The notes: generated by a model not told the origin, from the sequence alone. Positions 1 to 4,122 are shown, numbered from the stretch's first letter. The stretch is DNA of 4,224 nucleotides from a virus (IMGVR_UViG_2654587570_000007), one strand, 5' to 3'. Numbers and translations are program-made.

Positions 1-81
1 GTAGCTGAACAGGAGGGACAGCTGATAGAAACAGAAGCCACTGGAGCACCTCAAAAACACCATCATACACTAAATCAGTAA
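1..81 (+). CDS. 3' end of an upstream ORF (C-terminal 26 codons, product unknown); open from the window edge to TAA at 79-81
   Basis: Frame 1 is the only + frame open at the window start; it translates to VAEQEGQLIETEATGAPQKHHHTLNQ then stop. It is in the same frame as the 136..1059 ORF. Too short to assign a product; a holin C-terminus is possible but unsupported. Confidence 0.3.
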   Translation, partial: VAEQEGQLIETEATGAPQKHHHTLNQ

Positions 82-135
82 GTTGGCAGCATCACCAAAG
101 AGATAAATAATTACCCGGATAAGATTGCTGTTACT

Positions 136-1059
136 GTGGCACTTGAAATTGGCGGGCATCCGTCGTTGTTGTTGCCACATGTGGCGATTAGTCTTGACCG
201 TACTGAAGGTGCCACGCTGGAGTTCTACGAAGCTGAGGCGAAAAAACAGGCGAAGCAGTTTTTCATGGATATTGTTGCCGGGTTATGCGAAGGGGATGAA
301 CCGTCACCGGAAAAGCGCCCCGTAATTTTAGATGCGCAGGATGTATTGATAACCTACAAAGGAAAGCTACCGGGAAGAATTACTTGTTCTCTGAAGATGC
401 CGCCGTCAACACTGCGGTCAGAAAAAGATGATGTTGAATCGCGTATTGAAAAACTGGAGTGCTATATCGCTGAATTGAAAAAAAGCACCCCAACAAAAAA
501 TGAGGTGCTTGCAGCAGACGAAATGAAAGAAGCTATTCCTGATCGCGCGGCGAATCTAAGCTGCGCTTCATGGTTGAAAGAGCATCTTCAGCAGCCTGAA
601 AAAAAACGCCGCGATGAGCAGTTTGCTGCGTTTTACGATTATTGCCGGAAAGTGATGAGCAGAAATCTCGCAGAGTGTTTCAGTATTCATAATGATAATT
701 TCAGTGACCTGGAATGGGAGTGTAACCGGCCATCCTTTGTTGTATCCGGTGATGCTGGGAAAATAACCATCTCAGAAAATGGAAAAGTAACACCGCCATC
801 GCACCAGCATAGTGAGGAGCTCATTGAATTTGCCATTGATTACCTGAAGAACAATAAAAAGCAGGGGCTGATGAAGTGCATTGGTCGTTGCATGGGATAT
901 CTGCAGATAGCTGCTGAGATTGAAGCGCTGGCCAGTGGTGCGGACAAGGATGCAGTTGTGCGGGAGGCTCTTCTTCGTGATTTTGATAATCCGCCCTTTA
1001 AAAAAGTGCCGGCTTACTGGTTTCATCCAGGACTGACTTATCTTAAAGGACGTATATAA
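136..1059 (+). CDS. Hypothetical 307-aa soluble protein of unknown function, immediately upstream of the endolysin; start codon uncertain
   Basis: A 924-nt uninterrupted ORF, with the six-frame track placing the start at GTG 136. No transmembrane segment; charged and Cys-containing. No Shine-Dalgarno was found before GTG 136, GTG 181, ATG 265 or ATG 397. I do not recognise a family from memory. Confidence 0.6.
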   Translation: MALEIGGHPSLLLPHVAISLDRTEGATLEFYEAEAKKQAKQFFMDIVAGLCEGDEPSPEKRPVILDAQDVLITYKGKLPGRITCSLKMPPSTLRSEKDDVESRIEKLECYIAELKKSTPTKNEVLAADEMKEAIPDRAANLSCASWLKEHLQQPEKKRRDEQFAAFYDYCRKVMSRNLAECFSIHNDNFSDLEWECNRPSFVVSGDAGKITISENGKVTPPSHQHSEELIEFAIDYLKNNKKQGLMKCIGRCMGYLQIAAEIEALASGADKDAVVREALLRDFDNPPFKKVPAYWFHPGLTYLKGRI

Positions 1060-1101
1060 GCTGGCTCGTTATCTGTTGCCGATAAATCCTGATAAATATC
1101 C

Positions 1102-1635
1102 ATGAACACCAAAATCAAATACGGCCTGTCGGCTGCCGTTCTGGCGCTGATTGCCGCTGGTGCGCCTGCGCCTGACATTCTCGACCAGTTTCTGGATGAA
1201 AAGGAAGGTAACCACACCACGGCATACCGTGATGGTGCGGGGATCTGGACCATCTGCCGTGGTGCCATCATGGTGGATGGTAAACCTGTTGTTCCAGGCA
1301 TGAAGTTGTCGAAGGCAAAATGCGCTCAGGTTAACGCCATTGAGCGTAATAAGGCGCTGGCATGGGTGGAGAAAAACATCAAAGTGCCATTGACCGAACC
1401 ACAGAAAGCGGGGATTGCGTCATTCTGTCCGTACAACATTGGCCCCGGTAAGTGTTTCCCGTCGACGTTTTATAAACGAATTAATGCAGGCGATCGCAGG
1501 GGGGCGTGTGAGGCGATTCGCTGGTGGATTAAGGACGGTGGCAGAGACTGCCGTATTCGCTCAAACAACTGTTACGGTCAGGTATCCCGTCGCGACCAGG
1601 AGAGTGCGCTGGCGTGCTGGGGAATTGACAGATAA
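1102..1635 (+). CDS. R: SAR-type endolysin (phage lysozyme, T4-lysozyme/GH24 fold, P21 R / Stx-phage R-like)
   Basis: 177 aa. N-terminal weakly hydrophobic Gly/Ala-rich segment YGLSAAVLALIAAGAPAP is typical of a signal-arrest-release domain. Motif EGNHTTAYRDGAGIWTICRG gives the Glu35/Asp44/Thr50 spacing recalled for the P21 R catalytic triad. Near-identical by memory to the R protein of Stx phages. Confidence 0.93.
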   Translation: MNTKIKYGLSAAVLALIAAGAPAPDILDQFLDEKEGNHTTAYRDGAGIWTICRGAIMVDGKPVVPGMKLSKAKCAQVNAIERNKALAWVEKNIKVPLTEPQKAGIASFCPYNIGPGKCFPSTFYKRINAGDRRGACEAIRWWIKDGGRDCRIRSNNCYGQVSRRDQESALACWGIDR

Positions 1636-1725
1636 GCAGAATATTTTGCTGAAAAATGCGGTTTGCTCACACGGACGGATAACACGAAATCCTGCGAACT
1701 GACAAAAACTAAGTGAATAAAAGTA

Positions 1726-1764
1726 AAAACCCCGTTTGTTGGCTGCAAGCGGGGTTTTGTGTTT
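1726..1764 (+). terminator. Intrinsic (rho-independent) terminator-like hairpin between R and Rz, possibly bidirectional
   Basis: 13-bp stem aaaaccccgtttg / caagcggggtttt (one G-U pair), 7-nt loop ttggctg, GC-rich core, followed by T-tract ttttgtgttt. A-tract on the 5' side gives a U-tract on the opposite strand too. Confidence 0.6.
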
Positions 1765-1794
1765 CCTGACTCTGGAAAAGTCAAAGGAGAAAGT

Positions 1795-1932
1795 GTGTTT
1801 GATTTTAGCAAACTGATTCGGGAGATTCGAGTGATGGCTGAAAAATTATCCACCTGGAAGTTCATTCTTATCTGGCTGGTGTTTGTGATTATGGCCTCCG
1901 GTTATTTCATCGGTCAGATACGCTGGTGGTGA
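1795..1932 (+). CDS. Small single-pass membrane protein (45 aa from GTG 1795, or 32 aa from ATG 1834) between endolysin and spanins; candidate lysis accessory
   Basis: Not in the ORF track (below 60 aa). AAGGAG at 1784-1789 lies 5 nt before GTG 1795; alternative ATG 1834 has GGAG at 1821-1824. Product MFDFSKLIREIRVMAEKLSTWKFILIWLVFVIMASGYFIGQIRWW has one hydrophobic helix (FILIWLVFVIMASGYFIG). Stop TGA 1930-1932 is one base from the Rz ATG at 1934, suggesting translational coupling. Confidence 0.45.
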   Translation: MFDFSKLIREIRVMAEKLSTWKFILIWLVFVIMASGYFIGQIRWW

Positions 1933-1933
1933 A

Positions 1934-2401
1934 ATGAACCGCGTACTGTGCGTGGTCATCATTGCCCTGCTGGTGGCCTGTGGTGCGCTTAGTCTGGGGC
2001 TGAATCATTACCGTGATAACGCCATAACCTACAAAGAGCAGCGCGATAAAAAAGTCAGTGAGCTGGAGCAGGCAAATGCAACCATTACTGATATGCAGCA
2101 GCGCCAGCGTGATGTTGCTGCACTTGATGCCAGATACTCGAGGGAATTAGCCGATGCGAGAGCTGAAAATGAAACTCTTCGCGCTGACGTTGCCGCTGGT
2201 CGTAAGCGCCTGCGGATCAACGCCACCTGTCCAGGCTCCGTGCGTGAAGCCCCCACCACCTCCGGCGTGGATAATGCAACCGGCCCCCAACTGGCAGACA
2301 CCGTTACACGGGATTATTTCACCCTCAGAGAGCGGCTGATGACGATGCACAAGCAACTGGAAGGGGCACAGGACTATATCCGCACTCAGTGCCTGAAATA
2401 A
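1934..2401 (+). CDS. Rz: i-spanin Rz (inner-membrane spanin subunit)
   Basis: 155 aa. N-terminal TMD VLCVVIIALLVACGALSLGL followed by a charged coiled-coil-like periplasmic domain. Strong similarity by memory to lambda Rz (NHYRDNAITYK, AITDMQ, RQRDVAALDA, DYFTLRERL, MxKQLEG). Confidence 0.93.
   Translation: MNRVLCVVIIALLVACGALSLGLNHYRDNAITYKEQRDKKVSELEQANATITDMQQRQRDVAALDARYSRELADARAENETLRADVAAGRKRLRINATCPGSVREAPTTSGVDNATGPQLADTVTRDYFTLRERLMTMHKQLEGAQDYIRTQCLK
2154..2339 (+). CDS. Rz1: o-spanin Rz1 (outer-membrane lipoprotein), fully embedded in the +1 frame of Rz
   Basis: 61 aa. Signal peptide with lipobox LVVSAC (Cys20), then CVKPPPPPAWIMQP and WQTPLHGIISPSE, matching lambda Rz1 by memory. 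SD-like GAGGG about 9 nt upstream of ATG 2154. Confidence 0.85.
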   Translation: MRELKMKLFALTLPLVVSACGSTPPVQAPCVKPPPPPAWIMQPAPNWQTPLHGIISPSESG

Positions 2402-2751
2402 GTTTTGTTGATGCGCCGTATCGTCGCTGTATTCCCTCATTAACAGAGACCGCAGCCCGACAGGGAGACTCCTCTGCGCGAGTGTGCGGGGATAATCAAA
2501 AACGATACACACCGGGGTTTACCGCGTTAACGGAGCGCGGCGTTGTCCCCTCATAGTCGCCTGTCCGGTGCGATGGTGGAAGAAGCCGGATGTTTATCAC
2601 TATTAATTGATGACACAGAAATGGATTCATTGAATTTCAGCACGTTTTTGTATTCGTGTTATTGAACATCTGTTTATTTTACTTTTAACATATTGATAAT
2701 AAAAAGAGCTGTAAATCTTTAGATGAGTCGATTTTGTCCGGGGAAGTTCAA

Positions 2752-2889
2752 ATGGATTTTATGCTGACGGTTTCTGGTGTGGTTATCCTGTCCATTGCTT
2801 ATACTGCAGATAAATATGGCTGCCATTTGTTATCACGTATTGGCGCTTATTGTTCGTTGATGCTGATTTTCTCGTCGCTTTTTTTTTGA
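2752..2889 (+). CDS. Possible small hydrophobic protein (45 aa) in the AT-rich island; speculative
   Basis: ATG 2752 is preceded by GGGGAAG (2740-2746) with a 5-nt spacer. Product MDFMLTVSGVVILSIAYTADKYGCHLLSRIGAYCSLMLIFSSLFF. AT-rich promoter-like sequence upstream, e.g. TTGAAC at 2662-2667 then 18 bp then TAACAT. Short, in low-complexity DNA, no homolog recalled. Confidence 0.25.
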   Translation: MDFMLTVSGVVILSIAYTADKYGCHLLSRIGAYCSLMLIFSSLFF

Positions 2890-3025
2890 GTAAGTTATAT
2901 TAATTATAACAAATAATTTTCTGTGTTATTTTTTCAGGCTATCCCGTCAGAGGGGAAGCCTGTACTGCCGGGGAGCGAATGGAAAACTGATGTGTCCGGT
3001 AACTGCGTGTTCTGTGAACACCATG

Positions 3026-3211
3026 TTACTTAATTATGTAATTCATACCCGAACTCTCTGTTGACAGCCTTCTTCTGCAGGCTTCAATAACCCACGCTGA
3101 AAAGTTTCCTGAACCTTTCAGATCAAGAGCGATGTTAATTTGTTCAATCATCTGGTTTGGAAATCGGATGTTGCGGGTTGTTGTTCTGCGGGTTCTGTTC
3201 TTTGATGACAT
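3026..3211 (-). CDS. Small ribbon-helix-helix (Arc/MetJ-like) DNA-binding protein, YlcI/YnfO-like (DUF3950 with conserved NFS motif)
   Basis: 61-aa minus-strand ORF. Pattern RNIRFPNQMIEQINIALDLKGSGNFSAWVIEACRRRL fits beta-strand plus two helices; NFS motif present. SD-like GGGGAAA upstream of the ATG on the minus strand. Family assignment is from memory. Confidence 0.65.
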   Translation of the reverse strand: MSSKNRTRRTTTRNIRFPNQMIEQINIALDLKGSGNFSAWVIEACRRRLSTESSGMNYIIK

Positions 3212-3387
3212 AATGTTTCCCCATATTCAGTGTTGCTGATTTGTATTATCTGAAGTTGCTTTTACGTTAATTTGACGCAGATCAATTAATACGATACCTG
3301 CGTCATAATTGATTATTTCTCGTGGTTTGATGGCGTACACACATGTTGTGATAAACCTTATATAGATGATAATTATTATCATTTCGT

Positions 3388-3394
3388 GGGTCCT
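3388..3394. other. cosQ-like element (gggtcct), about 24 bp upstream of the cosN nick
   Basis: Position and sequence match my recollection of the lambda right end (gggtcctttccgg, then gatccgac and ggttacg). Surrounding sequence from about 3226 onward is near-identical to the lambda right-end region as recalled. Confidence 0.5.
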
Positions 3395-3417
3395 TTCCGG
3401 CGATCCGACCGGTTACG

Positions 3418-3429
3418 GGGCGGCGACCT
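3418..3429. other. cosN: the 12-nt cohesive-end sequence gggcggcgacct; predicted nicks 3417/3418 on the top strand and 3429/3430 on the bottom strand
   Basis: ggttacg|gggcggcgacct|cgcgggttttcgctatttatgaaaattttccgg matches the lambda cos junction as I recall it, and lies just upstream of the terminase genes as in lambdoid phages. Confidence 0.85.
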
Positions 3430-3463
3430 CGCGGGTTTTCGCTATTTATGAAAATTTTCCGGG

Positions 3464-3574
3464 AACCATGTCCGGTTTCTCTGCAAGTTAACTACATAAA
3501 AAATATAAAAACAGGTTTTCCGTGAACCGGACATGCGCAAAAAATAGACATATAAACCGGACATGACCGGTTTT
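3464..3574. repeat. cosB-like region: three copies of an 11-bp repeat (inverted catgtccggtt at 3467-3477; direct aaccggacatg at 3525-3535 and 3555-3565) with an A/T-rich putative IHF-bending segment (about 3485-3515) between the first and second
   Basis: Repeats read directly from the sequence; the two direct copies are 30 bp apart. The layout of one inverted and two direct repeats around an A/T-rich segment mirrors the lambda R3-I1-R2-R1 pattern, but the repeat sequence is not the lambda one. Confidence 0.55.
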
Positions 3575-3612: not shown

Positions 3613-4122
3613 GTGGCTACGCAGACTGAAGTTGCCAGGCATTTGAGTCTGACCGATCGCCAGCTTCGCAGATTGCAGAAATTGCCGGGTGCTCCGGTCT
3701 CGAATAAGCGAGGACAACTGGATCTGGATGCCTGGCGTGATTTTTACATATCGTATCTGAGGAGAAGTAAAAACGATGTGCCTGATGGCGATAGCGAAGA
3801 CGACTATGAAGAAAAGTTACTCATTGCCAGATGGAAGTTGATCGAAGAACAGGCAATCGCCCAGCAATTAAAAAATCAGGCGTCCGAAGGAAAGCTTATT
3901 GACACCGGATTCTGTATTTTTGCCCTCAGTAAGCTGGCAATGGCGTTATCCAGTACGCTTGATTCCATCCCTTTATCCATGCAGCGACAGTTTCCTGATT
4001 TAACACCGCGCCATCTTGACCATCTGAAAACCCTTATTGCGAAGGGGGCAAATCAGTGTGCGCGGGCAGGGGATAAATTACCGGATTTACTCGATGAATA
4101 TATCAGAGCAACAACTGAATAA
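3613..4122 (+). CDS. nu1: Terminase small subunit (Nu1-like, DNA packaging protein)
   Basis: 169 aa. C-terminal half aligns closely by memory with lambda Nu1 (GFCIFALSKLA, LDSIPLSMQRQFPDLTPRHLD, LPDLLDEYI). N-terminal winged-HTH region is diverged. GTG start at 3613 is preceded by an in-frame stop and a G-rich SD. Confidence 0.92.
   Translation: MATQTEVARHLSLTDRQLRRLQKLPGAPVSNKRGQLDLDAWRDFYISYLRRSKNDVPDGDSEDDYEEKLLIARWKLIEEQAIAQQLKNQASEGKLIDTGFCIFALSKLAMALSSTLDSIPLSMQRQFPDLTPRHLDHLKTLIAKGANQCARAGDKLPDLLDEYIRATTE

Follow-up and report, generated by a model that had tools for sequence, protein, structure and literature searches.

The 4,224-nucleotide (nt) stretch IMGVR_UViG_2654587570_000007, referred to here as the window (all coordinates count from base 1 of the whole stretch), is the late region of a lambdoid prophage of the Shiga toxin (Stx)-phage type, from E. 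coli or Shigella, in which a gene for a 45-amino acid (aa) protein with a single transmembrane domain (TMD) lies between the endolysin gene R and the spanin gene Rz. The initial annotation of this DNA had remarked on the lack of a holin gene beside R and had offered the small open reading frame (ORF) as an unusually small holin or pinholin, or as a releasin of the kind described for phage Mu; from the comparisons set out below, neither role is supported. The lysis cassette instead fits the evidence as an ordinary lambdoid set of a pinholin, an endolysin of the signal-anchor-release (SAR) type and spanins, with a P21-type holin gene that would lie farther upstream, out of view. Taking this together with the small gene, the explanation that we favour, by a modest degree, is that the holin is ordinary and that the small gene encodes an antisense-guarded membrane protein, which would be produced only late in the phage cycle from a layout resembling that of type I toxins.

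The small gene between R and Rz

The small ORF begins with GTG at 1795, preceded by the Shine-Dalgarno (SD) sequence GGAG (1786-1789), contains an alternative ATG start at 1834 (M14) and stops with TGA at 1930-1932, such that 1 nt separates it from the ATG of Rz at 1934. Its position as a single-TMD ORF between R and Rz, abutting the latter, is therefore as first annotated. The one hydrophobic segment, FILIWLVFVIMASGYFIG, spans residues 23-40 with a mean Kyte-Doolittle value of 2.35. The search against protein and profile databases that had been proposed at the outset returned an end-to-end match to phrog_6632 (45 positions, unknown function) and a RefSeq entry, WP_000459345.1, a 45-aa ‘hypothetical protein’; no match was obtained in Pfam (E ≤ 0.1), NCBIfam or PADLOC.

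Homologues of 38-98% identity, collected using tblastn and pattern searches, were found in 10 genera, namely Escherichia, Salmonella, Citrobacter, Yersinia, Pantoea, Brenneria, Sodalis, Trabulsiella, Providencia and Pseudomonas. Judged by an exhaustive phmmer search of 1.8 billion cluster representatives, which gave only 30 clusters, all of short proteins, the family is a narrow one. The cassette is carried by 899 of 5426 complete E. coli genomes (approximately 17%), and the small ORF is contained in 53 of the 468 phage records that match the window; it is found in many Stx phages and is mostly left unannotated.

Over 37 unique coding sequences, the ratio of nonsynonymous to synonymous polymorphism (pN/pS) was 0.33, and it was 0.38 for codons 2-20. 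Because the homologues align from residue 1-3 (conservation begins at position 2 or 3) and codons 2-20 are under purifying selection, the 45-aa reading is considered to be the coding one. The size first given as 32-45 aa is thus resolved in favour of the longer product from GTG 1795, with ATG 1834 as a possible second start.

Among the homologues, L18 and F23 never vary, and M14 and W21 hardly do. The N-terminal 22 residues are amphipathic and net positive (+5/-3) with a heptad pattern formed by F4, I11 and L18 together with L7, M14 and W21, and the 18-residue TMD is followed by a tail of five residues. The product is probably a tail-anchored helix of the inner membrane with an N-in/C-out topology, which oligomerises via the heptad core.

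The whereabouts of the holin

No holin-like ORF was present anywhere in the window according to the ORF listing, so that the absence of a holin beside R, as initially annotated, was borne out. The explanation is found at the left edge of the window. Over bases 1-96 the window shows 100% identity to plasmid records, at least 5000 in number, that carry the annotation ‘IS1 family transposase’, and all phage and E. coli relatives align to the window only from base 97 onward. The frame of a YdfR-family gene is open back to base 97, abutting the IS1 end, and the ORF 97-1059 scores 110.8 bits against PF07041, for which the gathering cut-off is 25. In the closest relative (L001), the RefSeq ‘YdfR family protein’ begins 27 nt before the match, meaning that nine codons were lost to IS1. 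The insertion sequence entered the ydfR-family gene at 27 nt, in the interval that would separate R from the pinholin gene; the resulting IS1/ydfR junction had no match in the 5426 complete E. coli genomes nor in IMG/VR. The ‘soluble 307-aa ORF’ initially placed before R is accordingly a truncated YdfR/DUF1327 gene, and the gap that follows it measures 42 bp (1060-1101), not 43 bp.

The top relatives of the window are prophages of E. coli UTAK-1 (99.4% identity), D1, O55:H7 strains and others, in addition to Stx-converting phages. In relatives free of IS1 (98-99% identity), a 68-aa class II holin is encoded 4 nt upstream of the ydfR-family gene, and that of L001 matches PF04971, ‘Bacteriophage P21 holin S’ (E 1.4e-32). 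The same order of holin, ydfR and R is seen in the Stx2a phage Stx2_95, in PhiR12_1 and in K-12 Qin (essQ-ydfR-rrrQ-rzpQ), the intact 329-aa YdfR homologue of Stx2_95 likewise sitting between holin and endolysin. A survey of the 149 loci in which the small ORF follows this type of endolysin, and for which at least 1.8 kb of upstream sequence was available, revealed a P21-type holin upstream of R in 117, with ydfR between holin and R in 110; the remainder mostly carried another recognisable holin. The window therefore lacks a holin because a ydfR-family gene is interposed and IS1 has inserted into that gene, in line with the fallback of the initial annotation, which had allowed for a holin upstream of the window.

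The rest of the cassette is conventional. R resembles the structures of the phage 21 endolysin, a lysozyme (3HDE/3HDF, E 8e-17), and of RrrD (4ZPU). Its N-terminus carries K4 and K6 followed by YGLSAAVLALIAAGAPAP, which consists of 67% G/A/S/T/P with a mean Kyte-Doolittle value of 1.5; by this composition it is SAR-like, matching the published description of SAR domains as lysines followed by a weakly hydrophobic Gly/Ala-rich stretch (PMC9239132). The PF04971 holin of the relatives, the R21/RrrD-type R and the Rz with embedded Rz1 are shared with phage 21 (S21, R21, Rz/Rz1) and with Qin, and the DUF1327 gene between holin and endolysin is shared with Qin. The differences from both are the IS1 in the DUF1327 gene, the holin being out of view, and the length of the DUF1327 gene (approximately 329 aa). 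The missing holin is thus an ordinary matter that needs no new biology, and it calls for caution against over-reading any lambdoid lysis cassette whose S and R are kept apart by a DUF1327 gene or an IS element.

Two side observations concern this region. The ydfR gene is the long form, approximately 329 aa when intact versus 103 aa for K-12 YdfR; DUF1327 spans only its first approximately 90 residues, and the C-terminal approximately 230 residues match only PHROGs of unknown function (phrog_1085, 36381 and 26186). In addition, IS1 is classically polar, and may impair expression of R, Rz and Rz1 from pR' unless Q-modified polymerase reads through it; with IS1 between the pinholin site and R, the prophage may be lysis-defective.

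RNA architecture of the cassette

R is parted from Rz by a 298-bp insert that includes the small-ORF cassette, an insert that Qin is without. In nearly every copy examined, a bidirectional terminator hairpin and an SD-sequestering hairpin precede the ORF, the whole unit being approximately 215 bp long. The GC-rich terminator hairpin, bordered 5' by an A-run and 3' by a T-run, was located approximately 35 nt upstream of the start codon in 44 of 45 unique upstream regions, and the same hairpin was recovered in 51 of 52 unique cassettes from the 10 genera. Its stem sequence varies between lineages with pairing retained, including compensatory changes (column pair 14/41 is AU in 24, GC in nine and CG in four sequences), and its A-run is nearly invariant. 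Upstream of the A-run, the sequences are unrelated between contexts; on the other side, the next gene follows 1-30 nt past the ORF stop with no terminator between. Since the stem varies with pairing kept, the A-run is nearly invariant and the upstream sequences are unrelated, the terminator is taken to be bidirectional and to form part of the mobile unit. The spacer 1636-1720, which lies outside this unit, is common to other R-Rz contexts (PhiR12_1 and, in part, SPN3UB).

Between the terminator and the start codon, the anti-SD sequence TTTCCT (1762-1767) pairs with AGGAGA (1785-1790), and an inner stem is formed by GACT (1768-1771) with AGTC (1779-1782). When 31 unique leaders were folded with RNAfold, nearly all gave the same two-part helix, in which a conserved TTTCY pairs with the SD (GGAGAA). 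The inner stem of 4-5 bp is compensatory, appearing as TGACT/AGTCA, CCTTG/CAAGG, CGTTA/TAACG, CATG/CATG, CTTG/CAAG and CCTG/CAGG.

A generic scan of positions 1000-3000 detected no sigma-70-like promoter on the plus strand, and the interval from terminator to start codon leaves only the approximately 35 nt mentioned above. As no plus-strand promoter was detected, the late operon must be the source of sense transcription. The possibility that a sense promoter overlaps the A-run or the hairpin was also entertained, and was rejected because the sequences upstream of the hairpin differ between contexts.

In PhiR12_1, the same hairpin and leader stand before an unrelated 60-aa transmembrane (TM) ORF, with a -10-like TATACT at the equivalent codons. 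Homology of this ORF to the small-ORF family was rejected (hhalign probability 0.2%). From this comparison, the regulatory front end, comprising the hairpin, the leader and the antisense promoter described below, appears to be reused with unrelated small TM ORFs.

A second allele occupies the same R-Rz site in many E. coli prophages (L191-L274, IMG/VR contigs, cassette at approximately 3001-3132). It encodes 44 aa (LIDFSKLIRELRLMISQLPNWKFLLVWSIPFLWVVSQLIVAIKG) from a TTG start and is approximately 60% identical; its terminator hairpin is nearly identical and its leader different, with the SD GGGAGG in the loop of a GGCAG/CTGCC hairpin. This arrangement suggests that recombination has had its break-points at the hairpin, and that an SD/anti-SD pair is displayed in the loop.

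A predicted antisense promoter and RNA

The 5' part of the small ORF is conserved beyond the demands of its protein sequence, pS being 0.32 in codons 2-20 versus 0.71 in codons 21-45. Among 34 unique sequences, those from Pseudomonas included, D3 is GAT, S5 is AGC and R12 is CGA in all 34, K6 is AAA in 32 of 34, F4 is TTT in 27 of 27, and E10 is always GAG. In contrast, F23 is divided between TTC and TTT (17 each), and K22 between AAA (20) and AAG (11). The loci were gathered in part with back-translated peptide patterns, and the homologues derived from tblastn display the same frozen codons.

The reverse complement of codons 3-6, TTTGCTAAAATC, is an extended -10 element (TGnTAAAAT) on the minus strand, located in the window as TGCTAAAAT at 1810->1802. 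Each of the 52 unique cassettes carries either TGCTAAAAT or TGCTAATAT, with unvarying spacing to the terminator, and the pattern TGNTAWWAT matches the window only twice, here and at TGTTATAAT (2903-2911). Upstream of it, across a spacer of 17 nt, stands a -35-like TCGAAT (1830->1825), the cassettes having either TCGAAT or TCGCAA; by the genetic code, CGA is the only Arg codon that gives T and G at positions 1 and 3 of the -35. The synonymous freezing falls exactly on the promoter positions. Another antisense promoter, suggested at 1917-1888 by the generic scan, was rejected as it is not conserved in the homologues.

The RNA predicted from this promoter would start approximately 7 nt past the -10 (approximately 1796-1794) and would run antisense to the start codon, SD and leader. 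Beyond the terminator hairpin the minus strand reads TTTTTACTTTTATT, where the predicted RNA would end with a U-tail, giving a length of approximately 78 nt in the window and 76-90 nt in the 52 cassettes, 90 being an upper bound set by the extracted stretch. Its predicted fold, a 5' stem-loop followed by the terminator, recurs in all 52 cassettes. That the terminator always lies upstream of the ORF would be explained by its terminating the antisense RNA.

An Rfam scan of the whole window (E ≤ 1) gave only a spurious long non-coding RNA hit and a sub-threshold rimP-leader match (E 0.054, minus strand, 1791-1702), which coincides with the predicted antisense RNA and carries no evidence of homology; AgvB, AsxR, Sok and other known small RNAs (sRNAs) were absent from that scan. 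Of the Pas sRNAs, PasA, PasC and PasD were considered as counterparts and rejected, since they lie between a sialate esterase or Q gene and the holin, and not between R and Rz.

Proposed explanation

On the explanation we favour, the cassette is mobile and occupies differing sites within late operons of Q-type temperate phages, the commonest being that between endolysin and spanin. In the lysogen, stray sense transcripts would stop at the terminator hairpin, and those that read through would be silenced, both through sequestration of the SD and through the antisense RNA. Once the prophage is induced, Q-modified RNA polymerase would read through the terminator, overrun the antisense promoter and out-titrate the antisense RNA, with the result that the peptide would be produced late only. 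Its likely role would be an accessory late membrane function, for instance nudging depolarisation and thereby holin triggering or lysis timing; the small ORF may play an accessory part in lysis.

The layout invites comparison with a type I toxin-antitoxin (TA) system of the Stx2 phage Sp5, hokW-sokW, by which lysis and release are aided (PMC8621323). Both comprise a single-TMD protein of approximately 50 aa or fewer, a short antisense RNA in cis over the initiation region (predicted in the present case), a structured ribosome-binding site, a home in a lambdoid Stx-type prophage and a plausible part in induced lysis. They differ in that the two share no sequence similarity, that the small ORF matches no Pfam or NCBIfam family, that its TMD is C-terminal rather than N-terminal, and that its antisense RNA and toxicity are predictions. 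In size and hydrophobicity, the small ORF falls within the range of type I TA toxins (fewer than 60 aa, membrane-targeted) with its 45 aa and 18-residue TMD; it departs from them in lacking a toxin promoter of its own, appearing instead to depend on read-through of the terminator by late (Q-modified) transcription.

A bolder version, which we advance only tentatively, is that the cassette represents a promoterless type I TA-like element, undescribed so far, which would be kept quiet in the lysogen by the terminator, the SD hairpin and a constitutive antisense RNA, would be unlocked only by antiterminated late transcription and would serve as a portable helper of lysis timing or depolarisation, its antisense RNA perhaps acting in trans as an sRNA. 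If true, the promoterless design would let the element insert anywhere in late operons across the Enterobacterales and Pseudomonas. Should the antisense RNA and the late gating hold, the cassette would provide a compact example of a membrane peptide that is silent in lysogens and released under antitermination; a candidate modulator of lysis timing, hence of Shiga-toxin release, and a candidate sRNA would be added to the late regions of pathogenic E. coli prophages.

Several points weigh against the favoured explanation. The -35 element is weak (3/6), and the generic promoter scan did not report an antisense promoter at 1802-1830. The invariance of GAG at E10 is left unexplained by the promoter, and an internal SD for a start at M14 could be responsible: a GAG-containing GGGAG precedes the nearly invariant M14 (ATG 1834), itself also a heptad core position, and the antisense RNA would leave this start uncovered. 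With regard to the leader, shuffles of single sequences gave its hairpin no significance alone, the stem being short, and RNAalifold on a MAFFT alignment of the leaders returned the outer terminator stem only, with no consensus for leader and 5' coding sequence; the SD hairpin is accepted because the per-sequence folds recur with different, compensatory arm sequences. One cassette (L179, IMGVR_UViG_2880350357_000011, approximately 2900-3138) is the sole one without the terminator hairpin at the usual distance. Q antiterminators were confirmed for the lambdoid contexts and SEN34 only. That the cassette so often sits between endolysin and spanin could point to a more direct role in lysis, or could equally mark a recombination hot spot. 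Lastly, IS1 might have deleted the holin of this particular genome, whose expected place lies beyond the window edge.

In the exceptional cassette L179, which follows a soluble GH24 lysozyme, the leader is replaced by approximately 75 nt of unrelated sequence, with a possible remnant, CGGGGTTTT, farther upstream.

Genomic contexts and alternative explanations

The flanking genes of 251 loci, a sample dominated by E. coli prophages, were clustered and Pfam was run on representatives. The small ORF directly followed an endolysin gene at approximately 206 of these loci, and the next gene was then usually a spanin. Five kinds of endolysin precede it (GH24 SAR type, GH19, peptidase M15, CHAP and an unassigned ‘NNPGNIR’ type). 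The accompanying spanins are of at least three types. In the lysis cassettes it co-occurs with a holin of the P21 type, the lambda-S type or another type with 2-3 TMDs. Elsewhere it lies between a baseplate spike gene (gpV-like, Apex motif) and the next baseplate gene in the Salmonella phage SEN34, the Escherichia phage Rac-SA53 and prophages of Yersinia similis and Pantoea stewartii; between the tail-tip genes K and I, or I and J, in Pseudomonas phages and prophages; and behind a tail fibre gene in a Sodalis prophage. SEN34 has a Q-type antiterminator, and its lambda-S-type holin (PF05106), 149-aa soluble lysozyme and Rz are in their normal place, the small ORF being situated approximately 22 kb farther along the late operon.

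That the small ORF encodes a dedicated accessory lysis protein, antiholin- or Lcc6-like, which would tune holin or pinholin triggering or the spanin step, with the tail copies displaced yet still late, is a possible though rather doubtful alternative. The predominance of endolysin-linked loci across five endolysin families and several spanin types speaks for it, as does the single nucleotide between the small-ORF stop and the Rz ATG. The SD hairpin together with the nearly invariant Met14 and its upstream GGAG is reminiscent of lambda S with its dual start and sdi. PhiR12_1 and SPN3UB also carry small TM ORFs between R and Rz. A precedent is found in Lcc6 of the Shewanella phage LambdaSo, a small TM protein whose gene is distant from the lysis cassette and which is required for pinholin-type lysis (bioRxiv 10.1101/2024.01.23.576932); like the small ORF, it is by description a small single-TMD phage protein outside the trio of holin, endolysin and spanin that can be encoded apart and accompanies a pinholin and SAR endolysin. 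Against this stands, first, the sample itself, being dominated by near-identical E. coli prophages, whereas baseplate, tail-tip and tail-fibre sites are common among the diverse lineages. Closely related lysis cassettes, namely those of K-12 Qin and SEN34, are without the ORF, as are all but the 53 of the 468 matching phage records given above, and the small ORF shows no co-variation with the type of holin or endolysin.

An unlikely alternative is that of a moron-like gene unrelated to lysis, serving to block superinfection or to modulate a host membrane protein as MgrB and AcrZ do, or else that the antisense transcript is the main product and acts in trans as an sRNA in lysogens. The HK97 gp15 moron encodes a small inner-membrane exclusion protein, and the cassette, akin to that element, places a gene for a small inner-membrane protein between otherwise adjacent genes at sites that differ per phage, here R|Rz, baseplate V|W, tail-tip K|I and I|J, and after the tail fibre, as expected of a moron by insertion. 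The predicted antisense RNA has the hairpin and U-tail typical of Hfq-dependent sRNAs, and sRNAs are known from the late regions of prophages in pathogenic E. coli. Classical morons, in contrast, have a promoter upstream, a terminator downstream and expression from the prophage; in the cassette the predicted antisense promoter is inside the ORF, the terminator lies upstream and no sense promoter was found, the latter two points arguing against expression in lysogens. There is also no PADLOC match, and since the ORF is under purifying selection throughout, the RNA cannot be the sole product.

It is very improbable that a holin-less SAR cassette has the small ORF as its true holin or pinholin, or as a Mu-type releasin, as its single TMD beside a SAR-like endolysin, its plausible coupling to Rz and the lack of a holin in the window had made it appear, because it occurs with five endolysin families, with a class I holin and a soluble lysozyme, at baseplate and tail sites, and alongside holins, the canonical P21-type holin of the relatives included. 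S21-type pinholins have two TMDs (a SAR-like TMD1 and TMD2) in approximately 68-71 aa, compared with the one segment in 45 aa here, and PF04971 was not matched. The Mu releasin gp25, which occurs exclusively in holin-less transposable phages, is a 99-aa DUF2730 protein of N-out/C-in topology whose cytoplasmic domain is anionic and 73 aa long (PMC9239132). The small ORF resembles it in being a small membrane-tethered protein with almost no periplasmic part near a SAR endolysin, but differs in its C-terminal TMD, its opposite predicted topology (N-in/C-out), its net-basic cytoplasmic part of 22 aa, the absence of DUF2730, and its hosts, which are lambdoid Q-type phages with holins and which also use non-SAR endolysins.

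Other features of the window

The map of the window, compiled from the ORF listing and from profile searches (Pfam, PHROG), is given in Table 1.

Table 1. Features located in the 4,224-nt window, with the evidence for each.
Feature	Position	Strand	Evidence
IS1 end, 96 bp (inverted-repeat end and start of insA)	1..96	-	100% identity to IS1 copies
YdfR/DUF1327-family gene, N-terminally truncated	97..1059	+	PF07041 E 3.8e-32; phrog_1085 E 2.4e-174
R, 177-aa lysozyme-family endolysin with SAR-like N-terminus	1102..1635	+	PF00959 E 2.6e-24
Non-coding spacer after R, outside the mobile cassette	1636..1720	+	sequence comparison
Bidirectional intrinsic-terminator-like hairpin (stem 1726-1758), 5' boundary of the cassette	1721..1768	.	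terminator scan, 14 pairs
Leader hairpin sequestering the Shine-Dalgarno	1762..1790	+	RNAfold
Gene for the 45-aa small protein, GTG start	1795..1932	+	phrog_6632 E 1.2e-29, full length
Predicted antisense promoter within codons 3-12	1802..1830	-	extended -10 and -35-like element
Predicted cis-antisense RNA, approximately 78 nt	1718..1796	-	inferred from promoter and terminator
Rz i-spanin	1934..2401	+	PF03245 E 2.2e-47; phrog_13
Rz1 o-spanin lipoprotein, inside Rz in the +1 frame	2154..2339	+	PF06085 E 4.4e-20; phrog_3198
Small hydrophobic ORF	2734/2752-2889	+	ORF listing
DUF3950 YlcI/YnfO gene	3026-3211	-	profile search
Lambda-like cos region	~3417-3465
Nu1-type small terminase gene	3613-4122

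The sequence GGGCGGCGACCTCGCGGGTTTTCGCTATTTATGAAAATTTTCCGG of the cos region seems to correspond to the left cohesive end (cos) of phage lambda, and lies approximately 150-200 bp upstream of the terminase gene.

Other lambdoid phages have different small single-TMD ORFs at the R-Rz junction. In PhiR12_1 (L008), the unrelated 60-aa TM ORF is followed by a 43-aa TM ORF (within 3145-3396 and 3411-3542), and in SPN3UB (L003) a 36-aa TM ORF (2736-2846) overlaps the stop codon of R. The endolysin-spanin junction seems to collect genes for small membrane proteins.

Contrary to the initial annotation, the small ORF is also not the only membrane-protein candidate, for a second hydrophobic ORF (MDFMLTVSGVVILSIAYTADKYGCHLLSRIGAYCSLMLIFSSLFF) is found downstream of R, between Rz and cos. 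It is a RefSeq hypothetical in the relatives and gave no Pfam, PHROG or PADLOC match. Directly 3' of it, on the minus strand, stands the perfect extended -10 TGTTATAAT noted above, and the ORF could be another small membrane protein overlapped by an antisense transcript.

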